The position numbers were made by a program, and so were the translations under genes. From Thermoanaerobaculia bacterium (lineage in GTDB: Bacteria > Acidobacteriota > Thermoanaerobaculia > Gp7-AA8), in NCBI GenBank assembly GCA_035525215.1, contig DATLEY010000161.1:8483-72482 (forward strand): 64,000 nt of DNA, in the 5' to 3' direction. This document shows, in pieces, positions 2,165 to 54,032 of this stretch. Numbering within the stretch: the stretch's first letter is position 1; every line of letters begins with the position of its first letter. The notes below the pieces were generated by a model. The model did not search any database. It worked only from the letters and a program-made list of their open reading frames with translations, and was not told where the DNA came from.

Positions 2165-4501
2165 TCAGGTCTCCACGCGCAGGAACATGTACAGCGCCGC
2201 GAGCATGAAAAGCACGTTCGCGCTCCACGCCGCCAGAACCGCTGGTAGGCTTCCAACTTCGCCGAGCTTGGTGAAGATCCCGAAAATGGACCAGTAACCG
2301 AAGGCCAGAAACAAGGCGATGCCGATTCCATAGAGGGCGCCCTTCTTCCCCATCCGGAAGGAGAAGGGGAGGGCGATCAGCGCCATGATCACGCTGATGA
2401 AGGGCCAGGAAGTCTTCCGCCAGAGCTGCACGGTGAGCTCGTCCGGCGAATATCCCAGCCGCTTCAGGTTGCCGATGTACCGCCGCAGCTCTCCCCAGGT
2501 CATCTCCCCCGGCGTCTTCGCCTCCACTTCGAAATAGGAGGGTCGCTCCGGGTAATGGAGTCGCACCGGCTGGACGATCGGCGTGTACGAAGAACCCCCA
2601 TCATCTCCGAAGGAACGGACCCATCCTCCGACGAACACCCATCCCGTTCCGTCCCAGCGGGCCTCGTCGGCGACGACCCTCCTCGCGAGTTTGAACTCGC
2701 TAGGATGGAACTCGAAGATCTGAACCCGGGAGAGAGTCTTCGTTCGTTTGTCATATCTGAGAAAATTGAACAGGTAACGCCCCCGGCCGAAAACCCACTG
2801 CCGCTGCTCGGATGAGAACGTACTGGGAGTCTCATCCCCCTCGATCACCGACTTGAGCTCCGCCGCCCGGCTGTTCGAGTAGGGAAGGACGAAATCGAGA
2901 AGAAAGTACGAGAAAATACTGAGCAGAACCGCGACCGCCAGAACCGGGAGAGCGATCCGGTACAGCGAGATCCCGTTCGCCTTGATCGCCGTCACTTCGT
3001 TGTTCTTCGAAAGCACGCCGAAGGTGATCAGCGTCGCGACCAGCACTGAGATCGGCAGTACCCAGTCGAAGAACTGGAAGATGACGTAGCGATAGTAGGA
3101 AACGACGATCTCGAAAGGGACGTCGTTCTCGTTGATGTCCTGGATGATCTCGGTGTAATCGACCACGAGGAAGAGCACGATGGTCGAAAGCAGCACCAGT
3201 CCGAGAATCTTCAGGTACTGCGTGAGGATGTAGCGGTCGAGGATGTTCGGCAAGGGGATGTCGATTCGCTTAAGGATCCCGCCGTCGTCATCCTCGCTGG
3301 CCTCCGCCGCGGCGGCGATCTTTGACCCCCGGCGCTGCGCCAGTCGGCGCACCAGCAGGCCGAGAAATCCGCGGATTCGTCCCGGCTGGCGTTCCGATCC
3401 GGTCTTTCCCATCAACCAAAAGCCCAGACCGAGAATCAGAAAATTCGCGGCCCACATCGCGATCCAGGCCGGTAGCCGGCCCGACCGCGCCAGGCTCTCT
3501 CCGTTATTCAGGAGAATGTAATAGACCAGGATGATCAGAATACTTAAAGAAAAACCTGAACTTTTGCCTCCGCGGCGGTTCGTGATTCCCAGCGGCAGAC
3601 CGATGACCCCGAACGCAATGCAGGCAAACGGGATCGCGAAGCGCTGGTGGATCTCGACTCGGTAGAACCGCTCGTCGAGCGGATCCTGCTCCCGGCGGGC
3701 CTGCTCCAGACGGTCGAGCAACTCGGGAAGTCCCATTTCCTTCATCGATTTAGCGAGCTTCTTCACCTTCACGACCTCCTCGGTCGGGTCATGAAGGAAC
3801 AGGCGCTGGGAATCGTTCCGGTTGAGGTCGTAGCGGTCAGGGCGCCGGGATGAAGAGACATGAGTCTCCGGCCCGTGGAGCTCGAGCCAGGACTGGCGTG
3901 TTCCAGCGGTCATCGTCAGCCGGCCGCTGTCGGCCAGGATCGTTCTCTGCTGGTTCGGGTCGGAGGTATCGGCAATGAAGATTCCTTTCCAGAGTCCGGT
4001 CTCGGCATCGACGTCATTGATGTAGATGACCCGGTCCTGGAATTCGTCGAAGAAAACCCTGGGCTGGATTTTGGTCTCCGCCGCCATCGTGAGGAGACTC
4101 AGCTGGCGCTGCTGGAGGGCCCGGTTGCCTCTGGGCAAAACGGAAAGCATCAGATAGAGCGTGATGCCGAACATCAGGAGCGAAAAAATGAAAACCGGAC
4201 GGTAGATTGCCCGAGACGACAGACCGGCGGATTGCATCGCGATGATCTCGGAGTCGGCGGAGAGACGGCCGATCGCGATGAGGATGCCGACCAGGAGAGC
4301 CATCGGCAGGGTCAGAACCACGATGTGAGGAAGTGAGAGGGCCAGCAGCTCGAGAACCGTCGAGAACGGCAGCGAGCGCTTGATGATGAGCTCGGCGAAA
4401 TCGAAAAGGTTCTTGATCAGGATCAGCAGCGTATAGAACGAGAAGCCCAGCGTGGTGGGCCCCAGGAGCTCTCGAAAGATGTAACGCGTGAGGATCCGCA
4501 T
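2165..4501 (-). CDS. lptFG: LPS export ABC permease, fused LptF-LptG (two YjgP/YjgQ domains in one 778-aa polypeptide)
   Basis: N-terminus MRILTRYIFRELL... is typical of LptF/LptG. A second YjgP/YjgQ-like domain restarts near aa 400 (ILDRYILTQYLKILG...) after a charged linker. Each half has multiple TM segments and a periplasmic domain. Confidence 0.7.
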   Translation of the reverse strand: MRILTRYIFRELLGPTTLGFSFYTLLILIKNLFDFAELIIKRSLPFSTVLELLALSLPHIVVLTLPMALLVGILIAIGRLSADSEIIAMQSAGLSSRAIYRPVFIFSLLMFGITLYLMLSVLPRGNRALQQRQLSLLTMAAETKIQPRVFFDEFQDRVIYINDVDAETGLWKGIFIADTSDPNQQRTILADSGRLTMTAGTRQSWLELHGPETHVSSSRRPDRYDLNRNDSQRLFLHDPTEEVVKVKKLAKSMKEMGLPELLDRLEQARREQDPLDERFYRVEIHQRFAIPFACIAFGVIGLPLGITNRRGGKSSGFSLSILIILVYYILLNNGESLARSGRLPAWIAMWAANFLILGLGFWLMGKTGSERQPGRIRGFLGLLVRRLAQRRGSKIAAAAEASEDDDGGILKRIDIPLPNILDRYILTQYLKILGLVLLSTIVLFLVVDYTEIIQDINENDVPFEIVVSYYRYVIFQFFDWVLPISVLVATLITFGVLSKNNEVTAIKANGISLYRIALPVLAVAVLLSIFSYFLLDFVLPYSNSRAAELKSVIEGDETPSTFSSEQRQWVFGRGRYLFNFLRYDKRTKTLSRVQIFEFHPSEFKLARRVVADEARWDGTGWVFVGGWVRSFGDDGGSSYTPIVQPVRLHYPERPSYFEVEAKTPGEMTWGELRRYIGNLKRLGYSPDELTVQLWRKTSWPFISVIMALIALPFSFRMGKKGALYGIGIALFLAFGYWSIFGIFTKLGEVGSLPAVLAAWSANVLFMLAALYMFLRVET

Positions 4502-21665: not shown

Positions 21666-21700
21666 AAAGGAGTTGCGAGTTCCGAGTTGCGAGTTCTACA
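21666..21700. repeat. Direct repeat GAGTTGCGAGTTC x2 in the accA-recJ intergenic spacer
   Basis: GAGTTGCGAGTTCcGAGTTGCGAGTTC is read directly from the sequence, between the accA stop and the recJ start. Confidence 0.5.
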
Positions 21701-21712
21701 ACCGGTAGAGAC

Positions 21713-22663
21713 TCAGGCCTTCTCGAAAACGCCCATCTTGCGGAACTTCTTGTATCGCTCCTCCGGAAGGGCTGCGGGCTTGATCTTCGAAAGCTCCTTC
21801 AGTGCTTTCTGGAGGTAAGGGCGCAGCAGCTCGGCGGCACGCGCAGGGTCGGAATGAGCTCCCCCTTCCGGCTCCGGCACGATCTCGTCGATCACCCCCA
21901 GCTCCTTCAGCTCGGCCGCAGTGATTTTCATTGCGCTCGCCGCCTCCTGCGCCGCTGCTGGATTCTTCCAGAGGATCGCCGCGCATCCCTCGGGCGAGAT
22001 CACCGAGTAGACCGCGTGCTCGAGCATCAGGATGCGATCTCCCACGCCCAGCGCGAGTGCGCCACCGCTTCCACCCTCCCCGGTTACGGTGACGATGATC
22101 GGAACGGTGAGCCCGGCCATGTCGCGCAGATTCACCGCGATCGCCTCGGCCTGCCCTCGCTCTTCCGCCCCGAGTCCGGGGTAGGCGCCCGGCGTGTCGA
22201 TGAAACAGAAGATCGGATGGCGGAACCGGTTCGCGAGCTCCATGATCCGCAGCGCCTTCCGGTACCCCTCCGGCCGCGGCATGCCGAAGTTGCGGATGAC
22301 CTTCTCCTTCGTGTCGCGACCCTTCTGATGGCCGATCACCACGCAGGAAGTGCCGTCGAATCGCGCCAGGCCGCTCACGATGGCCGGATCGTCGCCGAAC
22401 TTCCGGTCCCCGTGCAGCTCGACGAAGTCCTCGAAGAGGAGCTCGATGAAATCGAGCGAGTACGGACGGGAAGGATGACGGGCGACCAGGGTCTTCTGCC
22501 ACGCCGAGAGGTTGGCGTAAACGTCCCGGCTGACTCTGGTAAGCTTCGCCTGAAGCTCCTCGATCTCGTGAACGCTCGCGGGGTCGGACGGCTCACCCAG
22601 CTCTTCGATCCGCTTACGCAGCTCCAGAATCGGCTGCTCGAATTGCGCTGGATCGCTGGTCAC
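21713..22663 (-). CDS. accA: Acetyl-CoA carboxylase carboxyltransferase subunit alpha
   Basis: 316 aa. Conserved AccA blocks ([17 protein letters not shown]). Confidence 0.9.
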
Positions 22664-22747
22664 GGGCGGACCGTAGCAGAAGCCTCAGCACAGGGTCAAA
22701 TTGTGCCGAAGCCGCCCTTGAAGCACGAAACGGAGACCCCGAATACG

Positions 22748-23239
22748 ATGGAAACCGCGGATTCGACCGAATCGATGCGCCACGTCCCCCCGGCGGCCGA
22801 GCTGCTGCGACGGGTCGATGAGATCTACCGTAAACGTCTGGATGCCGCACTCGCGATCTATGAGACGGCGAGCGAGGATCAGAGGAAGAAGCTCGCAGCG
22901 CGGCTGATCGCGGTCGCGCGCTGGCTCGAGCGGATTCCGGAATCCCCGAGGGAAAATCGCGCGGGACACCGCGGCGAGTCGAACGATCCGCCGACGCGAA
23001 CGCGCGCCGCGCTGCAGATCGCCGTCGAAGCTCTCCATCGCATCGACACGGACCGGTTCGGACATCGGGCGCCATTCCATCGTTTCGAGCAGTCCGGAGC
23101 TGAACGTCTGTACGAAGCGGTACTCGCCGCTGGTTACTCGCTCTCGATCCTGCTCGACGAGATGCAGAAGATTGACCCGGACGTCTGGTGGAAGCTGCTC
23201 GACAGCTCGGCCCGCGACCAGATCCCGATGGTCGGTTGA
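22748..23239 (+). CDS. Hypothetical helical protein
   Basis: 163-aa ORF on the plus strand, divergent from accA. Its composition is protein-like (not low-complexity). The stop codon is embedded in the CTGAG-type repeat. It is the in-frame 3' part of track ORF 21854..23239. Confidence 0.4.
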   Translation: METADSTESMRHVPPAAELLRRVDEIYRKRLDAALAIYETASEDQRKKLAARLIAVARWLERIPESPRENRAGHRGESNDPPTRTRAALQIAVEALHRIDTDRFGHRAPFHRFEQSGAERLYEAVLAAGYSLSILLDEMQKIDPDVWWKLLDSSARDQIPMVG

Positions 23240-23310
23240 GTCCTGAGTGCTGAGTCCTGAGTGTGGCGCCGATCCAAGGCTGGGCGGCGAGACGCCGCCC
23301 GCCACTCTGC
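23237..23310. repeat. Composite intergenic repeat (CTGAG-unit block plus GC hairpin CTGGGCGGCGAGACGCCGCCCGCCACTCTG)
   Basis: TGAGTCCTGAGTGCTGAGTCCTGAGTG is followed by GGGCGGCG-aga-CGCCGCCC. The same two modules recur at 26593-26861 and 30748-31172. Confidence 0.7.
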
Positions 23311-26592: not shown

Positions 26593-26861
26593 AGTGGCGG
26601 GCGGCGTCTCGCCGCCCAGCCGTTAACGGCAATGCTGAAATACTCGGGCCTTTGTGGCGCGGGCTTTCAGCCGGCTGGCGCCACTCGGACGGCGGAGCCG
26701 TCCCAAGCGTTGCTACGTCCCGCTGATACCCGAAAGCGCGCTTCGCGTCGACGAACCAGCGCGCTTCGCGCATCGGCTTGCCTTTAACGCGGCTGGGCGG
26801 CGAGACGCCGCCCGCCACTCTGGCGCCGGCTTTCAGCCGGAGTACTCAGGACTCAGCACTC
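26593..26861. repeat. MITE-like element: ~40-bp terminal inverted repeats flanking ~145 bp, plus adjacent CTGAG-type block
   Basis: Left arm AGTGGCGGGCGGCGTCTCGCCGCCCAGCCGTTAACGGCAA (26593-26632). Right arm TTGCCTTTAACGCGGCTGGGCGGCGAGACGCCGCCCGCCACT (26778-26819). The two are near-perfect reverse complements. The CTGAGT-type block 26841-26861 overlaps the coaBC stop. Confidence 0.65.
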
Positions 26862-28045
26862 TTTCCCATCGCCGCGACGGCGCGATCGAGGATCCGGTTC
26901 GCGATGGTCAGCTTTGGAGCACGGGGGATCGGGAGGCTCTCTCCATTTCGATCGAACAGCGTGACGGCGTTCTGATCCGAATCGAAACCGATCGAAACAT
27001 CGCTCACATCGTTCGCCACGACCAGATCCACCTGCTTCCGGTCGAGCTTCTCGCGCGCGTTCGCTTCGACGTTCTCGGTCTCCGCGGCGAAGGCGATGAC
27101 GTATGCCCCATGGCCGTTGCCGCGCACCGCTTCCAGGATGTCGGGCGTGCGCGCCAGCTCCAGAGTCATTCCGCCCGAACCTGGGCTCTTCTTGATCTTC
27201 TGCGTGCTCGGCGCGCTGACGGTGAAATCGGCCACCGCCGCGGCCTTGATCAGGAGATCGCAGGCAGGAAGCGTCGCGATCACGGCGTCCCGCATCTCCG
27301 CGGCGGTCATCACCGGAACGACGCGCACGCCGTGCGGCGGAGCGAGCCGGGTCGGTCCGGAGACCAGCGTCACTTCCGCCCCCCTTCTCCGCGCGGCCGC
27401 GGCCAGGGCGTACCCCATCTTTCCCGACGAGCGGTTGGAGAGGTAGCGGACCGGGTCGATCGGCTCGCGCGTCGGGCCGGCCGTGACCACCACCCGTTTC
27501 CCCTCGAGATCGCGCGGCGCTGACTGCGCCATGACATGCTCGACGATGGCCGGCGGGTCGGGCATCCTTCCGACACCTTCATCGCCGCAGGCCAGAATGC
27601 CGGAGTCGGGATCGAGGATCTCGACGCCGCGGATGCGGAGCGTCTCGAGATTCTGCCGTACCGTCGGGTGTCCAAACATCGTGGTGTTCATCGCGGGAAC
27701 CACAACGATGGGAGCGCGGTGCGCGAGGGCGTAGGTTGTCAGGGCGTCGTCGGCGATTCCGACCGCGAGCTTCGCGATGAGGTTCGCGGTGGCGGGAGCG
27801 ACGAGGAGGAGATCCGCCCAGCGTGCGATCTCGATGTGATCGACCCCGCCCTGCGAGGGATCGCCCCACTGATCGGTGAGGACTCCGTGATTGGATACCG
27901 CGGAGAGGCTGAGTGGTGAAACGAAACGGGTGGCGTTCGCGGTCATGATGACGCGAACGTCCGCGCGGGCATCCCGGAGGCGCCTGACCAGGTCAGGCGT
28001 CTTGTACGCGGCGATGCCGCCCGAGATGCCGAGTACGATGTTCAC
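26846..28045 (-). CDS. coaBC: Bifunctional phosphopantothenoylcysteine decarboxylase/phosphopantothenate-cysteine ligase
   Basis: N-terminal flavoprotein domain (ILGISGGIAAYK) and a C-terminal CoaB domain. 399 aa. Confidence 0.9.
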   Translation of the reverse strand: MNIVLGISGGIAAYKTPDLVRRLRDARADVRVIMTANATRFVSPLSLSAVSNHGVLTDQWGDPSQGGVDHIEIARWADLLLVAPATANLIAKLAVGIADDALTTYALAHRAPIVVVPAMNTTMFGHPTVRQNLETLRIRGVEILDPDSGILACGDEGVGRMPDPPAIVEHVMAQSAPRDLEGKRVVVTAGPTREPIDPVRYLSNRSSGKMGYALAAAARRRGAEVTLVSGPTRLAPPHGVRVVPVMTAAEMRDAVIATLPACDLLIKAAAVADFTVSAPSTQKIKKSPGSGGMTLELARTPDILEAVRGNGHGAYVIAFAAETENVEANAREKLDRKQVDLVVANDVSDVSIGFDSDQNAVTLFDRNGESLPIPRAPKLTIANRILDRAVAAMGKSAES

Positions 28046-29904: not shown

Positions 29905-30696
29905 TCAGCTGCTGCGGCCGTAACGCGAGCGGAAAGTGTTGTAATCGTTGGTGTTCGTGACGAGTCGGGAGTTTCCCGGAAGCTTGGCGATCTCGCTGCG
30001 GACCAGTTCGATGCGGGATTCCGTGACCGGGTGCGACGAGAAGAAACGCTCCACGGCTCCCGGGCTGCGCTGACGCCGAGCCAGGAGCTCTTCGAACATC
30101 GACGCCATCCCCTCGGGGTTGTAGCCAGCCGCGTGCATCCAGCGGGTCCCGAGGACGTCGGACTCCCGCTCGGCGTCCCTGCCATAGCTGGCCATGGCGC
30201 CTCCCGCGACGATCTGCGCGAGGATCTGCTGGTAGGCCGCGGGATTCTGTCCAAGGAGCACGCTCGCCAGGATGTTGATCCCCTGGGCGCGCGACATCTG
30301 CTCGGTGCCGTGACGTTGAACGCCGTGCGCGATCTCATGAGCCATCACGCCCGCGAGCTCGGCGACGTTGTCCGCGGCGCCGATGAGACCCGTCGTCACG
30401 TAGACATGTCCGCCTGGAATGTTGAACGCGTTGACCTCGGGGGAGTCGATGATGTGAAACCCCCAGGGGAGATTCGCCATGGGAGTCTGCGCCACCAGGC
30501 GCTGCCCGAGCTGAGTGATGTAGGCGTTCGCCGCCTGATCCCGGACCACAGGCATCTGGCGCTCGATGTCGGCCGCCAGCTGCTGGCCGAGCCGCCACTC
30601 CTCCTCGAGCGAGATCATGTTGAAGCCGCCGCCGGAAGAGCATCCGGTGATCAGGACTGCAACGATGGCAAGTGCTGAGAGCCGCGCTGATTTCAC
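29905..30696 (-). CDS. M48-family zinc metalloprotease lipoprotein
   Basis: HEIAH zinc motif. Lipobox LITGCSS after a signal peptide. Confidence 0.7.
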   Translation of the reverse strand: MKSARLSALAIVAVLITGCSSGGGFNMISLEEEWRLGQQLAADIERQMPVVRDQAANAYITQLGQRLVAQTPMANLPWGFHIIDSPEVNAFNIPGGHVYVTTGLIGAADNVAELAGVMAHEIAHGVQRHGTEQMSRAQGINILASVLLGQNPAAYQQILAQIVAGGAMASYGRDAERESDVLGTRWMHAAGYNPEGMASMFEELLARRQRSPGAVERFFSSHPVTESRIELVRSEIAKLPGNSRLVTNTNDYNTFRSRYGRSS

Positions 30697-30747
30697 GATT
30701 CAACCTCCTGGTTTGCGGAGGTTATTGAGAGCAACTCCCCTGCCATG

Positions 30748-31172
30748 AGGGAGAGTGCTGAGTCCTGAGTGCTGAGCCTGAGTGCTGAGCCTGAGTGGCT
30801 GAGTCCTGAGTGCTGAGCCTGAGTGCTGAGCCCTGAGGGGCGAGTGCTGAGTCCTGAGGGGCGAGTGCTGAGTGCTGAGGGGGCCAGAGCTGAGTCCTGA
30901 GTAGCTCTGGGCGGCCCGGGCCGGCACGCCTACTCCTGAGTGCAGTAGGGGCGGCGGACTGAACCGTTGGCCTTCAAGCTCCGGAGCCGGCCGAAACCGG
31001 GGGAACTCCGCTCAACCCACCTCAGGACTTACCAAGCGCTCAGGACTCATCCCCTCGGCACTCTTACTCAGCACTCAGCACTCGATCCTCAGCACTCAGG
31101 ACTCTCACTCAGCACTCAGAACTCGTCCCTCAGCACTCTCACTCAGCACTCGATCCTCAGTACTCTTCCTTA
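30748..31172. repeat. Large imperfect palindromic array of 7-8-bp CTGAG(T/C)(G/C)C units
   Basis: About 19 CTGAG units in 30752-30905. About 11 reverse-complement CTCAG units in 31040-31170. These flank a ~115-bp unique core. Fills the ykgJ-M48 intergenic spacer. Confidence 0.8.
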
Positions 31173-31568
31173 CCCGAGCTCGTACGGAATGAAGTCGGGA
31201 TCGTCCTGGTGGTCGCGCTCGAAGGCGAGAAAATCGTAGTAGCCGCAGCGTCGTCCCTCGGGATAGCTGCGGCAGACGTTCGGGCGCGCCTCGTAGATCG
31301 TGCAGCGCCGCGTCTCCTTGTCGAGGAACTGGCAGACGGTTCCGTACACCTTGTCCTTTTGATGACGGAGCGCGCGATGTCCCTCGACGAGCTTCGTGAA
31401 TTTACGCTCGGCGGCTTCCGGGGTGAGGCTGAAGTGCTTGGCGAGCCGCTTGACATCCCGCTTCGTGACGTCGATTCGCTCGTAGCTGCAGCAGTAGGCG
31501 GGGCACTTGAGGCAATCGAAGAGTGGCTTGAGGTTTCCGGGAAGCTCCGCGGGCTTGGCTCTGGACAA
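31170..31568 (-). CDS. YkgJ-family (CxxCxxCC, UPF0153) cysteine-cluster protein
   Basis: [10 protein letters not shown] motif plus further conserved Cys residues. 132 aa. Confidence 0.6.
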
Positions 31569-31673
31569 ACAGGACCTCTCAATCGGGTGAAGAGCCGGCC
31601 ACTCGGTTGTGATTGCGAATCAAATCGATCGCGCTCTCGAGAGTCGCTCGTTTCGTCTCTGCCCCGAAGCAGT

Positions 31674-32492
31674 TTAAGGCATCCCGGGCTCGCGGGTCAC
31701 TTCTCCCGTCATGGGAACGAACCGCACGGGGATGGTGCGATGCTCGGTAACGCCTTCAGCGGTTTTGGTCACGATGACCAGCTCCTGGTACCAGTCGCCG
31801 ACGGGAATGACCAGACGCCCGTCGACTGCGAGCTGGTCGATGAGAGGCTGGGGGATGAAACGTGGAGCGGCGGTGACGATGATCGCGTCGAAAGGAGCTT
31901 CCTCGGGCCAGCCGCGATAGCCGTCGCCGTGCCGGACTTTCACATTCTGATATCCGAGAGTCTTCAGCGTCTTCTCGCTCTGCTCGGCGAGCTCCGGGAC
32001 GATCTCGATCGTGTAGACGTCCCTGACGATCTCCGCGAGAACGGCCGCCTGATATCCCGATCCCGTCCCCACTTCGAGCACGCGGTCGCCTGCACTGAGT
32101 CCGAGGGCCTGAGTCATGTAGGCGACGATGTAGGGCTGAGAGATCGTCTGGTCATGTCCGATCTGAAGAGGACGATCCTCGTAGGCATGCGTCGCCTGCG
32201 AAGTCGGAACGAAGCGATGGCGGGGAACGCGCCGCATCGCATCGAGCACCGCCTGATTGGTGATTCCTCGCGCCGTGATCTGTTCAGCGACCATCCGCTG
32301 GCGCGCCCTCGTCTGCGGATCGTTCGCGCCGGTCAGGTCTCCATCCCGCCCCTCCCGGACCCCCTCGAGGGCGCAACCGGCGAGAGCGGCAATGAGGATC
32401 AAAGTCCAGGAGAGACGCGGCACGTAGCGCATTATAGGGGCCTTCGCTCGCCGATCCCTGGTCATCGACTCGAACGTAACGGTTCGGTTCAT
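31674..32492 (-). CDS. pcm: Protein-L-isoaspartate O-methyltransferase with N-terminal lipoprotein-type signal peptide
   Basis: PIMT motifs ([13 protein letters not shown], post-I/II blocks). The N-terminus [20 protein letters not shown] looks like a lipoprotein signal. The alternative start at 32432 would give the signal peptide directly. Confidence 0.75.
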
Positions 32493-44697: not shown

Positions 44698-44976
44698 CCC
44701 GACCGATTCGCTTTCGAGCTCATCGGGCGGCCGGGCCGGCCTTCGGATCTTGCGCTCATCGCTCGGGGGCATTCGGGGCCAGACCTCTCAGATCAATCTC
44801 CGACTTCGGCGCGAGTCGCCGGAAATGGCGCCCGGCACGACCAGGTTGCGGCTCCGAAATCTTGCGCCGACCGGGGATCGACGAGCCGTGGAACGAGGCT
44901 TCCCGCGCAGGGGTCCATTACAGCTAACTTATTGATACGCGCCGAAATGGGAGTTTAGCGGCGAGGTCTGGACGCG

Positions 44977-45657
44977 TCAAGGAGCGGAGGCATTCCCACT
45001 GCGGACCCGATCGACGATCAGGCCGACGACCTGGCGGATGGAGAGGTCGGAGGTGTCCACGACGTGATACGTGTCATCCCAGCGCAGCGGCGAGTCATGC
45101 CGCTCGGAATCCTGCCGGTCGCGCGTCTCGATCTCTCCCAGAACCAGACTCACATCCTGAGAGATCCCCCGAGCCTCGAGCTCGAGCTGCCTGCGCCGGG
45201 CACGGACCTCCGGGCGGGCGGTGAGGAAGAACTTGTAAGGAGTTTCCGGGAAGACCTTGGTTCCGATGTCCCTCCCCTCGAGCACTCCACCGGCTCTGCG
45301 CCCCATCTCCTGTTGCATCCGGACCAGGACTCGCCGGACGGCCGGAACCGCGGAGACCAGGCTCGCGGCCATGCTCATCTCCGGGGTGCGGATGGACCCG
45401 GTGACGTCTTCCCCGTCCAGAATCACCTTCTGGGCCGCTCCGCTGCCTTCGAGATCGATCGACGTCGAAGCGGCCAGCGACTGGAGGACTGATTCGTCAC
45501 GGAGATCGATGGCGCGCCGGACGGCTTTGAGCGCCATGGCCCGGTACATGGCGCCCGTGTCGATGTGAGGGAGCTCGAGCGCCTCGGCGACCCGGCGGCT
45601 GGTCGTCGACTTTCCCACGCCCGCCGGACCGTCGATGGCGACGATGACCGCGGCCAT
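44977..45657 (-). CDS. cmk: Cytidylate kinase
   Basis: IAIDGPAGVGKST P-loop. The ATG at 45657 overlaps the rluB stop (TGATG). The track ORF to 45888 is an upstream extension through rluB. Confidence 0.85.
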   Translation of the reverse strand: MAAVIVAIDGPAGVGKSTTSRRVAEALELPHIDTGAMYRAMALKAVRRAIDLRDESVLQSLAASTSIDLEGSGAAQKVILDGEDVTGSIRTPEMSMAASLVSAVPAVRRVLVRMQQEMGRRAGGVLEGRDIGTKVFPETPYKFFLTARPEVRARRRQLELEARGISQDVSLVLGEIETRDRQDSERHDSPLRWDDTYHVVDTSDLSIRQVVGLIVDRVRSGNASAP

Positions 45658-49189: not shown

Positions 49190-49680
49190 AGGATGGTCGA
49201 GGGTTCAGGGTAGAGGAGCGAGGGAAGAGGGGAGAAGCATTCGCGGCGGACCTGCCGCGCAGCGTGCCCCCGCAACTCAAACGACACGGGTCCCGGCTCG
49301 TGAGTCAAAGGCCGTTCACGGGCACGGGCGCGTTCACGTTCACGGGTCGGAGGCAGGAACAGGTCATTCAGAGGCCGCACGGGAGGAGGAGGTGGCAAGA
49401 CGATTGGTCTCGCGGCCGAAGAATCTCAGAATGCGCAGGCCGTCATCGGGTTCTTGTGCCGGTGCACTCGCATCGTCCGAACGCGTCTGGACGTGGATAA
49501 GAACCCGACAGCGATCATCGCGGCTGAGATTCTTCGGCCGCGACGCCAGCTCATATTCTGCACGGCTGGCGCGTGCGGCCTCTGAATGACCCGCCCTCCC
49601 CGCGCAATTCCGCTTCTCCCTCTTCCTTTCGCTCCTCTCCCCTCTCCCTCTTCCATCGCTCCTCTACCCTCTTCCATCCC
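49190..49680. repeat. Nested imperfect palindrome with mirror polypurine/polypyrimidine outer arms (recG-trpS spacer)
   Basis: Outer arms: GGGTAGAGGAGCGAGGGAAGAGGGGAGAAGC (49207-49237) pairs with the complement in 49610-49680. A perfect 20-bp inverted repeat GGTCATTCAGAGGCCGCACG lies at 49361-49380 and 49571-49590. An inner 21-bp inverted repeat lies at 49408-49428 and 49523-49543. Confidence 0.8.
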
Positions 49681-49681
49681 C

Positions 49682-51781
49682 TCAGTCCCTCTCGCGCAGC
49701 TGCTTTCCGCTCTCCAGGACCCCGGGTGCCAGCGCATCCAGATCGCCGTAGGTTCCCTTCTCCGCCGCTTCGATCGCGGCTTCCCTCGCGATCTCCATCA
49801 GCTCGTGATCGCGGATCAGATGGCCGAAGCGAAAACGGGGAACGCCGGACTGGCGAGTGCCGAAGAAGTCTCCCGGGCCGCGAATCTCCAGATCTTTCTC
49901 CGCGACCTCGAAGCCGTCGCGGGTCGACTCGAATGAGCGCAGCCGCGCCTTCGTTTCCTCCGAGGCACCCTCATCGCGGATGAGAATGCAGAGCGACTTC
50001 CTCGAGCCGCGGCCCACGCGACCCCGCAGCTGATGGAGCTGCGAGAGTCCGAAGCGGTCCGCATCGACGATCACCATCACCGAGGCGGCGGGGACATCGA
50101 TGCCGACTTCGATCACGGTCGTCGATACGAGGATGTCGATCTCTCCACGCTTGAACTGCGCCATGACCTGCTGCTTCTGATTCGGAGGCATCCTGCCATG
50201 GAGCACGCCGACGCGGCGGCCGGTAAACGCGGCACGGACCCGCTCTTCGCCCGCGACCAGCGGCGTGAGGTCGAGCTTTTCCGACTCTTCGATGATCGGA
50301 AAGACGATGTATGCCTGCGCCCCCGCCGCGATCTCTTCCTCGATGAACCGGAAGACCTTCGCCAGCCGGTTCGTCCCCCGCACGATGGTCCGCACGGGAG
50401 TTCGCCCGGGCGGCAGCTCGTCGATCACAGAAAGCTCGAGGTCACCGTACATGGCGATGGCCAGCGAGCGCGGGATCGGCGTCGCGGTCATGACCAGGAC
50501 GTCGGGGAGACGTCCCTTCTCGAAGAGCCGCTGGCGCTGCACCACGCCGAACCGGTGCTGCTCGTCGACGATGGCCAGGCCGAGCGAGCGGAACTCCACC
50601 GGTTTCTCGAGGAGCGCGTGAGTTCCGATCAGCAGATCGATCTCTCCTGCTGCCAGCGCCGCGAGAATCGGACGCCTTTCGGCGGCGGACGTGGATCCCG
50701 TCAGCCTGGCCACGCGCACCTTGTCACCGAGAAGCTGACGGATTCTCTCTTCATGCTGCCCAGCCAGAATCTCCGTTGGAGCCATCAATGCCGCCTGATG
50801 CCCGTTGCGGATGACGATCATCGCGGCGATGAGCGCCACGATCGTCTTTCCCGACCCCACGTCGCCCTGGAGCAGCCGGTACATCGGCTCCTCCGCCTGG
50901 AGGTCGCCGGCGATCTCGCGAAGGACCCTTTTCTGCGCCCCGGTCAGCCGGAACGGGAGGACTTCCCGCACGCTGGCGCGCAATTCGTCATCGATCGCGA
51001 TTCGCCGCTGTTTTCTCTTCACTTCCTCGGAGGCGCGGCGCAGCCGCAGAGCCAGCTGAAACGCGAAGAACTCCTGCACGATCAGCCGCCGGTGTGCCGG
51101 CGTTTCGAGGGTCGCGAGCTCCGGAGTCAGCTCTCGCGGATGATGGAGCGAAAGAATCGCTTCACTCAGCGGGATCACGCCGAGCCGTTTTGCGAGAAGC
51201 GGCGGGAAGGGGTCCTCGAGTCGCGACACCGACTCCAGCGCCTGCTGGATCACATTGCGAACGGACTTCGTGTAGATCCCGTTCACCGGCGGATAGATCG
51301 GAACGATCGCCCCCTCGGTCTCGCCGACTCCGGTATCGTCGATCTTCTCCCAGGCGGGGCTGTCGATCTGCAGGCGGTTGCGCTGCGAGAAACGCGGCTG
51401 CCCGTAGATCGCCAGCCGGTCTCCCTTCATGATCTTCTCCGCGAGCCATGGCTGATTGAACCAGACCAGCATCACCGTTCCGGTCGAGTCATCGAGGATC
51501 GTCTCGAAAATCGACATTCTGCGTACCGGCGAGGTCTTCAAGTGCGCGGAGAGGATGCGTCCCCGCAGCAGGACCGGACCGCTCGTTTCTCCGAGATCGC
51601 AGACGCGTGTCGGATTCCGCCGATCCTCATAACGATGCGGAAACCAGAAGAGCAGGTCGCGGGCCGTGCGCAGACCGCAGGCTTCGAACAGCGCCGCCCG
51701 TCCCTCGCCCACTCCGCGCAGATTGCGCACCGAGGTCTCCGGTCCGATGGGCGTCCACTGATCTCGGGCGGCGCGGCTCAC
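49682..51781 (-). CDS. recG: ATP-dependent DNA helicase RecG
   Basis: Wedge domain plus helicase motifs (GDVGSGKT, DEQHRFG). 699 aa. Confidence 0.9.
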   Translation of the reverse strand: MSRAARDQWTPIGPETSVRNLRGVGEGRAALFEACGLRTARDLLFWFPHRYEDRRNPTRVCDLGETSGPVLLRGRILSAHLKTSPVRRMSIFETILDDSTGTVMLVWFNQPWLAEKIMKGDRLAIYGQPRFSQRNRLQIDSPAWEKIDDTGVGETEGAIVPIYPPVNGIYTKSVRNVIQQALESVSRLEDPFPPLLAKRLGVIPLSEAILSLHHPRELTPELATLETPAHRRLIVQEFFAFQLALRLRRASEEVKRKQRRIAIDDELRASVREVLPFRLTGAQKRVLREIAGDLQAEEPMYRLLQGDVGSGKTIVALIAAMIVIRNGHQAALMAPTEILAGQHEERIRQLLGDKVRVARLTGSTSAAERRPILAALAAGEIDLLIGTHALLEKPVEFRSLGLAIVDEQHRFGVVQRQRLFEKGRLPDVLVMTATPIPRSLAIAMYGDLELSVIDELPPGRTPVRTIVRGTNRLAKVFRFIEEEIAAGAQAYIVFPIIEESEKLDLTPLVAGEERVRAAFTGRRVGVLHGRMPPNQKQQVMAQFKRGEIDILVSTTVIEVGIDVPAASVMVIVDADRFGLSQLHQLRGRVGRGSRKSLCILIRDEGASEETKARLRSFESTRDGFEVAEKDLEIRGPGDFFGTRQSGVPRFRFGHLIRDHELMEIAREAAIEAAEKGTYGDLDALAPGVLESGKQLRERD

Positions 51782-53664: not shown

Positions 53665-54032
<368 letters not shown>

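Follow-up and report, generated by a model that had tools for sequence, protein, structure and literature searches.

Heptanucleotide repeats and the ykgJ–M48 spacer

Heptanucleotide repeats are the commonest long tandem repeats in many bacteria, and more than 30 years on there is no explanation of what they do, why the period is 7 nt or how they spread. Heptanucleotides have been described as the most abundant class of long simple sequence repeats (LSSRs), which was tentatively ascribed to the length of DNA that the polymerase holds (Mrazek 2007, as cited in PMC4679880 and PMC4692102). The Xanthomonas unit GGGAATC forms 70–75 convergent inverted pairs per genome, located on the sense strand near stop codons; divergent intergenic regions are avoided, arrays of four units are preferred, and no function has been found (Rehm et al. 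2015, PMC4692102). In the case of the TAACTGA repeats, one unit dominates a genome (169 sets), the distribution is patchy across phyla, and no spreading mechanism has been reported (MacGregor 2015, PMC4679880). Here, a repeat element was analysed in a 64-kb stretch of a Thermoanaerobaculia metagenome-assembled genome (MAG; Acidobacteriota), referred to below as the window, to which all coordinates refer. The element lies between two minus-strand genes, ykgJ and a gene for an M48 family metallopeptidase (M48), and is an unusually large case of the known intergenic heptanucleotide repeat class that includes the cyanobacterial short tandemly repeated repetitive (STRR) sequences and Xanthomonas GGGAATC.

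The 473-nt spacer (30697–31169) separating the two genes contains two inverted arrays of GAGTSCT around a core of ~100 nt, and the whole occupies positions 30748–31172 (Table 1). Tandem Repeats Finder (TRF) delimited the left array at 30753–30879 (plus strand; period 7, 18.4 copies, unit GAGTGCT) and the inverted right array at 31066–31151 (minus strand; period 7, 12.6 copies, unit ACTCAGC), with a distance of 187 nt between them. The 12-mer CTGAGYSCTGAG is present in 16 copies in the window, against 0.06 expected, and 13 of the 16 are found in the spacer: ten in the left arm, all on the plus strand, and three in the right arm, all on the minus strand. The first-pass annotation of this stretch had reported an array at 30748–31172 filling the ykgJ–M48 spacer, and both its coordinates and its content agree with the TRF results, the 12-mer counts and the extent of the palindrome. 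The numbers of units given there stood only in part: ~19 units had been assigned to the left arm and ~11 to the right, whereas GAG-phased parsing yields 22 units for the former (30748–30912) and 21 for the latter (31011–31172), which makes the right-arm figure an undercount. Most of the GAG-phased units are 7 nt long, some are 6 or 8 nt, and the variants include GAGCCT, GAGGGGC and GAGGATC, among others. Each arm carries a separate 41-nt higher-order repeat. Since the succession of units in one arm is not the mirror image of that in the other, an origin by recent exact inverted duplication was rejected.

The palindrome extends over 30748–31170, starts 4 nt past the ykgJ stop codon, and has 30748–30789 and 31129–31170 as its outermost complementary segments. 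One long imperfect hairpin around the core is predicted on either strand, with −270 kcal/mol (z −8.5) for RNA of the minus strand, −262 kcal/mol (z −11.5) for RNA of the plus strand and −135 kcal/mol (z −9.5) for DNA; no shuffle equalled any of these values. The very long imperfect hairpin postulated in the first-pass annotation is thus confirmed as a prediction, and the small hairpin that had been noticed within the core is present as well. On the transcribed minus strand, the right arm is the G-rich 5′ arm, which starts 4 nt after the ykgJ TAA (31170–31172), and the left arm is the C-rich 3′ arm, adjoining the candidate promoter of M48. Open reading frames (ORFs) are confined in the spacer to the C-rich arms, where no frame contains a stop codon, and so the earlier view that the region encodes nothing other than spurious ORFs holds. 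The G-rich arms have TGA stops in all three frames.

Assembly can generate spurious palindromes, and short-read contigs of the same population do break within both arms. A chimeric fold-back generated during assembly or amplification is nevertheless scarcely credible, given that the element is flanked by two different genes whose synteny is conserved and that the same architecture is found in complete genomes and many independent assemblies. Moreover, two independent Logan contigs of run SRR8556377, identical to the window in the flanks, enter the arms for 34 and ~40 nt with matching sequence before they end. The element is not an assembly artefact. The ends of these contigs inside the arms may be due to 7-nt copy-number heterogeneity, as hinted by one extra GAGTGCT unit at the end of one of them (L253, compared with window positions ~31134–31160). 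The extra unit reflects population heterogeneity or assembly uncertainty, and the numbers of units given here are approximate. In practical terms, such arrays break short-read assemblies and yield spurious low-complexity ORFs.

With respect to class membership, the units are arranged head to tail, their length of 7 nt falls in the 5–11 nt range of LSSR/STRR repeats, and the arrays extend beyond chance length. The features of a convergent pair are likewise observed, i.e., opposite-strand arrays that lie close together, the G-rich arm first, within tens of nt of a stop codon. Compared with Xanthomonas GGGAATC and Nostoc GGGGA(C/T)T (PMC4692102), the GAGTSCT repeats are similar in being tandem, in being dispersed and intergenic or at stop codons within the 64 kb covered, in forming convergent inverted pairs with the G-rich arm first and about four units preferred, and in a length that varies among relatives while the repeat type stays. 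Inverted heptamer pairs near stop codons have already been described, and the element does not represent a previously unseen kind; no new kind of system is at hand, and the comparative rules presented below sharpen an old question. What differs from the Xanthomonas and Nostoc repeats is the unit, which has no G-runs, the host, which is an acidobacterium, and the size, which, at ~20 units in each arm around a core of 100 nt, greatly exceeds the norm. Since GAGTSCT has no G-run, and one is found in three variant units alone (GAGGGGC twice, GAGGGGGCCA once), G-quadruplex formation, which calls for no fewer than four runs of three or more G, was rejected, and the G-quadruplex explanation of the Xanthomonas and Nostoc repeats cannot apply here. 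This very large, non-G-quadruplex and non-cyanobacterial example from Acidobacteria thus argues against that explanation of the best-studied family.

The STRR sequences (Mazel et al. 1990, as cited in PMC4692102) are also tandem heptanucleotides with many copies per genome. Inverted pairs of GAGTGCT itself were found in Nostoc, Anabaena and Calothrix loci (L046, L061, L080), and an STRR1-type unit is paired in Nostoc too (GGGACTG with AATCCCC, L075). Unlike the repeat of the Thermoanaerobaculia MAG, however, STRR sequences are described in the citing paper as specific to heterocystous cyanobacteria, with three named units other than GAGTGCT. The TAACTGA repeats of Beggiatoaceae, Cyanobacteria and Bacteroidetes (PMC4679880) share with the present ones a single dominant heptamer, an intergenic location and a patchy occurrence across distant phyla, but they are nearly all direct and lie just upstream of start codons, with one inverted case, whereas inverted pairs running from stop codons are seen here. 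A CRISPR array, discounted already in the first-pass annotation, was rejected because the units measure 7 nt, compared with 24–48 nt for the direct repeats of such arrays, and are contiguous, with no unique spacers between them, and inverted between the arms. No paper describing GAGTGCT arrays was found; exact-string literature searches gave only amplified fragment length polymorphism (AFLP) MseI adapter sequences and unrelated primers. The string GAGTCCTGAGT also occurs in the standard MseI adapter and primer used for AFLP, so that adapter sequences swamp searches for the repeat; the match is a coincidence and not contamination.

Table 1. Coordinates of the repeat element, its flanking genes and the other heptamer copies of the window
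Feature	Position	Strand	Remarks
Left arm	30748–30912	+	~22 GAG-phased GAGTSCT units; variants GAGCCT, GAGGGGC, GAGTGGCT; G-rich on the plus strand
Unique core	30913–31010		~100 nt, with its own small hairpin CCTACTcctgagtgcAGTAGG at 30929–30949
Right arm	31011–31172	−	~21 GAGTSCT units, AGSACTC as read on the plus strand
CxxCxxCC (YkgJ-type) zinc/iron-chelating domain protein	31170–31568	−	upstream gene
M48 family metallopeptidase, lipoprotein-like BepA/YfgC relative	29905–30696	−	downstream gene
Sigma-54-type −24/−12 promoter motif	30728–30746	−	TGGCAG-N5-TTGCTCT, i.e., GG-N10-GC
Mini copy, 3.7 GAGTSCT units	23236–23262	+	3′ of priA (minus strand)
Mini copy, 2.7 units	26845–26863	−	overlaps the coaBC stop codon
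Related array GAGTTSC (GAGTTGC/GAGTTCC), 3.9 copies	21670–21696	+	most of the 58-nt accA–recJ spacer

A G-first palindromic architecture recurs in many phyla

In the window, three GAGTSCT loci and one GAGTTSC locus, which has the GAGT core in common with the main unit, were detected, all intergenic or at stop codons. Together with at least 120 GAGTSCT loci in other genomes, they bear out the dispersed repeat family that had been proposed at the outset. The further copies listed at that time, at 23237 and 26841 and at the 3′ ends of genes, correspond to the two mini copies of Table 1, and are indeed found 3′ of priA in one case and at the stop codon of coaBC in the other. The first of them had possibly been attributed to the 3′ end of a plus-strand ORF (21854–23239), which has no Pfam match and is antisense to accA. 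This ORF is taken to be spurious, and the repeat copy was therefore assigned to the 3′ region of priA. The mini copy at coaBC encodes the C-terminal residues of the protein (...KSAES*).

Both mini copies are located within ~25 nt of hairpins resembling repetitive extragenic palindromic (REP) sequences. Three copies of these hairpins (23276–23307, 26593–26623 and 26793–26824) were found, against 0.09 expected; each consists of a GTGG head and an 8-bp GC palindrome with a 3-nt loop (GGGCGGCG-AGA-CGCCGCCC), and the form beside both mini copies is GTGG-CGGGCGGCG-TCT-CGCCGCCC. The priA mini copy is ~14 nt from the hairpin at 23276–23307, and in priA-sense RNA GAGTG comes first, followed by the REP hairpin and finally by (ACTCAGS)n. 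The hairpin at 26793–26824 comes after the coaBC mini copy, and two of the hairpins, separated by ~170 nt within the coaBC–udg spacer, are inverted relative to each other in the manner of a REPIN. REP sequences, bacterial interspersed mosaic elements (BIMEs) and REPINs are comparable to the heptamer arrays as extragenic hairpin-forming repeats of 3′ regions and of spacers between co-directional genes, and have been proposed to stabilise upstream mRNA and attenuate read-through. In contrast to them, the arms described here are tandem 7-mers that vary by whole units and not one palindrome of 20–40 nt with a GTAG head. Membership in REP/BIME was rejected on this ground, in line with the first-pass annotation, and also because the likeness of the core to the REP-like hairpins of the window is not above that of shuffles (score 19 vs. 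16.3 ± 2.6). A diverged REP within the core was rejected as not significant.

The proximity of such hairpins raises the question of a non-autonomous mobile element similar to a MITE (miniature inverted-repeat transposable element) or a REPIN, in which the arrays would be terminal inverted repeats or recognition sites moved by a REP-associated Y1 transposase (TnpAREP) cutting at CT. TnpAREP cleaves at CT next to GTAG-headed REPs; every heptamer unit ends in CT, the same unit is scattered over several loci within one genome, and, besides the GTGG-headed hairpins at both mini copies, GTAG-headed REPs adjoin GAGTSCT arrays in two loci of the survey below (L230 and L111). However, no target-site duplication or flanking direct repeat is visible at the ends of the element, the cores are unrelated between copies even in one contig, the arms vary in length by whole units without being mirrored, and the core shows no significant likeness to REPs. 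No transposase was identified in the window, which is weak evidence, given that 9 of the 56 called ORFs were scanned against Pfam. MITE membership was rejected based on the missing direct repeat and the unrelated cores, and mobility in general appears improbable.

The comparative surveys comprised ~250 fetched loci. A scan for (GAGTSCT)×3.4, with one genome per species, returned at least 120 loci, and among the matches listed are Nostocales, Acidobacteriota (Blastocatellia, Thermoanaerobaculia, Pyrinomonadaceae), Chloroflexota, Planctomycetota, Gemmatimonadota, Nitrospirota, Verrucomicrobiota, Chlorobiaceae, Treponema and Pantoea. Close-lying arrays follow the order (GAGTSCT)n ... (AGSACTC)n, with cores ranging from ~10 nt to several hundred nt, some of which contain other REP-like hairpins. 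The same arrangement was observed for other units, including AGGCGAG, TGGGTGA, CGTAAGT and AGTTGGC, and nearly all of the units found by TRF across the fetched loci have a period of 7. A metagenome scan with the M48 protein retrieved only relatives of ~40% identity and no strain variants, and was used as a repeat-blind sample: in 317 kb of Acidobacteria contigs picked by M48 homology, period 7 was the commonest (23 of 66 tandem repeats), and four inverted pairs were present. In viral loci, 172 of 251 arrays had this period.

The surveys revealed several regularities. In the GAGTSCT family, the G-rich arm is the 5′ arm in 37 of 38 pairs, on both strands alike, the sole exception being a false pair across a gene in L099; among other units, 27 pairs are G-first, five are C-first and four are ambiguous, and L100, which has the reverse order of units, is G-first by composition nonetheless. 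In 75 palindromic arrays, the median gap from the array edge to a gene 3′ end is 4 nt (49 of 80 sides lie within 10 nt), compared with 77 nt to a gene 5′ end (56 sides). Convergent gene contexts outnumber divergent ones by 25 to 10 according to a crude gene caller; another 24 arrays were labelled as intragenic by this caller, probably in many cases because an ORF extends along the C-rich strand, which is free of stops, and this category was left unused. Arms have a median of 4.3–4.6 units, with a mode of 4–5, and exceed 12 units in just six of 86 family arms, which makes the copy in the window extreme. The architecture of a G-rich 5′ arm, arms of usually 4–5 units and adjoining stop codons is thereby shown to recur in many phyla.

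Many of the small family members have perfect stems of ~30–37 bp, preceded by an A-tract and followed by a U-tract (e.g., L028 and L035). The 37-bp stem of L028, flanked by A- and U-tracts, has a predicted energy of −70 kcal/mol (z −11.6). In this respect, the small members resemble bidirectional intrinsic terminators, with which the family also shares a GC-containing hairpin right after the stop codon; the copy in the window differs from such terminators in that it lacks a U-tract and has bulged arms of ~150 nt and a 100-nt core. Across all elements, T is modestly enriched after the 3′ arm (3.09 vs. 2.12 per 10 nt).

Some of the surveyed loci are of interest in their own right. The IMG/VR contig 3300005578_000008 (40.8 kb; L215, L221, L222, L226 and L230) carries more than 15 GAGTSCT arrays between genes, and one of its pairs brackets an apparent whole glycosyltransferase-like gene interrupted by GTAG-headed REPs (GTAGGGGCGCAGCATGCTGCGCCC). 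In L058 (1889–2014), twelve AGSACTC units in sense orientation stop 6 nt before the start codon of an L16-like ribosomal protein gene, and the AGGA within the heptamer AGGACTC could serve as a Shine-Dalgarno sequence. Perfect unpaired arrays of 14–15 units are present in Pantoea coffeiphila (L016, 4654–4751) and Treponema sp. HNW (L072, 5351–5455); these may be ordinary contingency-type microsatellites and not members of the family.

The ykgJ–M48 spacer was further compared in five related lineages, whose M48 proteins are 67–76% identical to that of the window. Arms of a 9-mer, (GCGTCTTGG)n ... (CCAAGACGC)n, are found in L123 and arms of (GTTCTCC)n ... (GGAGAAC)n in L127 and L128, whereas the spacers of L122 and L124–L126 have no array; that of L124 is unstructured (z 0.42). 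Each of these genomes uses its own dominant unit in several spacers. Palindromic arrays located in the same or neighbouring spacers are those at 2213–2473 of L123, 3773–3922 of L127, and 2884–2992, 3566–3666 and 4672–4760 of L128, with the 9-mer GCGTCTTGG, GTTCTCC and CAGGGGA/CAGTAGA as units. With their C-rich arm first, the GTTCTCC pairs belong to the small number of exceptions to the polarity.

A candidate 3′-end hairpin and its competitors

The element takes up precisely the stretch from the ykgJ stop codon to a candidate conserved sigma-54-type promoter of M48. The consensus of the −24/−12 elements recognised with sigma-54 is GG-N10-GC, and the minus-strand sequence directly downstream of the array, CATGGCAGGGGAGTTGCTCT, fits it; the array ends ~2–6 nt upstream of the motif. 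In an alignment of six orthologous M48 upstream regions, TGGC and GTTGCTCT are the sole invariant blocks. The motif implies a possible RpoN control of the M48-yicC-gmk-rpoZ-coaBC block in Thermoanaerobaculia.

We lean slightly towards the reading that the element is a repeat hairpin, grown by slippage in the 3′ region of ykgJ, which acts as a terminator, insulator or stabiliser. The arrays would have arisen and grown in place by replication slippage in steps of 7 nt, as inferred from the arm-specific 41-nt super-repeats and the difference of one unit between assemblies. A pcm-ykgJ transcript would run into the element, the G-rich arm would emerge first, and the C-rich arm would then pair with it to give a hairpin with arms of ~150 nt each, starting 4 nt after the stop codon. 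Such a hairpin could block 3′ exonucleases, would be a likely substrate of RNase III, and could impede read-through; it would thereby fix the 3′ terminus of the ykgJ mRNA and shield the putatively sigma-54-controlled M48-yicC-gmk-rpoZ-coaBC genes from upstream transcription. The element would thus be REP/BIME-like or terminator-like in function, by analogy, and not a REP by membership. The adjacency to stop codons, the terminator-like small members, the conserved candidate promoter and the recurrence of arrays at orthologous spacers fit this mechanism.

Several observations weigh against a role as a 3′-end hairpin. A consensus scan of 30300–31700 predicted no canonical terminator (hairpin followed by a U-tract), for which reason membership among Rho-independent terminators was rejected, and the sequence after each 3′ arm is merely pyrimidine-rich. 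Judging from the array-less orthologs, the hairpin is dispensable at the ykgJ–M48 locus. The promoter of M48 is a candidate identified by its motif, and the element fills exactly the signal-free space, as a neutral expansion also would. Slippage alone, finally, accounts neither for the spread of one unit to several loci in a genome nor for a G-rich arm that is nearly always the 5′ one. As to the roles offered in the first-pass annotation, a terminator or insulator thus agrees with the position of the element, but not with the missing canonical terminator or the unstructured array-less spacer of an ortholog, and nothing was found in support of a role in recombination. Rfam gave no spacer match at the gathering score, and the sub-threshold C/D-box and miRNA matches are due to the CUGA motif and the hairpin shape.

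The strong and main competitor of the hairpin mechanism is a neutral or selfish by-product, i.e., slippage expansion in constraint-free intergenic DNA with a hairpin that has no selected role, which we regard as possible, yet not as the probable explanation. An array that spans from 4 nt after a stop codon to a few nt before a promoter motif is what a space-filling repeat would produce, and the small gaps to stop codons and large gaps to start codons across the survey fit a limit set by purifying selection on neighbouring signals. The array-less spacers of L122 and L124–L126 show no compensating structure, as seen in L124 (z 0.42), the number of units differs between assemblies, and published work on the Xanthomonas repeats has found no function (PMC4692102). 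The inverted arrangement and the G-first polarity (37 of 38, and 27 vs. 5) are, on the other hand, far from random, and neither a preferred arm length of 4–5 units nor the under-representation of divergent intergenic regions, seen here and in Xanthomonas (PMC4692102), is readily accommodated by unconstrained expansion. The same is true of the ykgJ–M48 spacer itself, where a palindromic array is present in four of six lineages with three different units. The occurrence of the same heptamer in more than ten phyla, which could suggest a conserved recognition motif, is of less help: three control heptamers of the same composition form arrays in viral contigs at a similar order (13, 7 and 2 stretches vs. 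22), which is compatible with neutrality, and the cross-phylum recurrence is weak as proof of a motif because heptamer space is small.

The location next to the candidate promoter also allows for a DNA-level regulatory array, a binding platform or a phase-variable spacer whose copy number would alter M48 expression. The proximal arm lies at about −10 to −160 from the sigma-54-type promoter, which is the usual range of enhancer sites, the number of units varies, and promoter read-out is reported in a Nostoc preprint to be affected by heptamer repeats located upstream of recO and recF. We nevertheless consider this highly improbable, since the repeat is also found after priA and at the coaBC stop codon without such a promoter nearby, the arrays track stop codons and not promoters across genomes, and orthologs keep the promoter without any array.

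Several possible causes of the G-first polarity were considered. Stop codons in all frames are found in 72 of 76 5′ arms of GAGTSCT and in 5 of 76 3′ arms, but for other units the numbers are 23 and 20 of 66; the stops were therefore rejected as the cause of the polarity and regarded as its by-product. Avoidance of Rho was rejected as a general cause, given that the same polarity is observed in cyanobacteria, which to our knowledge lack Rho. The best guess is fold-back priming by the G-rich strand, which could pair with itself via G-T wobbles (AGTGCT). In the most far-reaching reading, palindromic heptamer arrays would be one cross-phylum class of self-propagating hairpins with a built-in G-first polarity, made by a specific mechanism and not by random slippage, and selected as ~30-bp hairpins that touch stop codons and couple translation termination to mRNA 3′-end formation; a locus would keep the architecture even as its units are replaced. 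The mechanism could be fold-back priming of the nascent G-rich strand, or else an enzyme that processes hairpins and cleaves every unit at its CT. This scenario is rather unlikely in our estimation. Taken together, the G-first order, the start at stop codons, the arms of 4–5 units and the swaps of units at one spacer lead to testable hypotheses on a terminator or RNase III hairpin and on the origin of the palindromes.

Neighbouring genes and minor features of the window

The minus strand carries every gene from recJ (19960) through the second M16-type ORF (35469), in the order recJ, accA, priA, udg, coaBC, rpoZ, gmk, yicC, M48, ykgJ and pcm. The genes rpoZ, gmk and yicC and the two M16-type ORFs were named by synteny with annotated orthologous loci or from their translations. 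Between the sigma-54-type motif and M48, a further hairpin, AACCUCCgcaaaccaGGAGGUU (30702–30723, minus strand), contains an anti-Shine-Dalgarno-like CCUCC that would pair with the GGAGG Shine-Dalgarno sequence, 6 nt before the GTG start of M48; it could be a translational control element of this gene.

The sole Rfam match of the window at the gathering score is a bacterial class A RNase P RNA (53666–54027, minus strand; 313 bits). Gaps without a confidently called gene were noted at 22664–23310 (647 nt, from the priA stop to the accA start) and 44773–45256 (484 nt). In addition, a CT-rich polypyrimidine tract of ~100 nt at 49600–49700, which lies in a 588-nt intergenic gap, shows periodicities of 27 nt and 7 nt (CCTCTCC).

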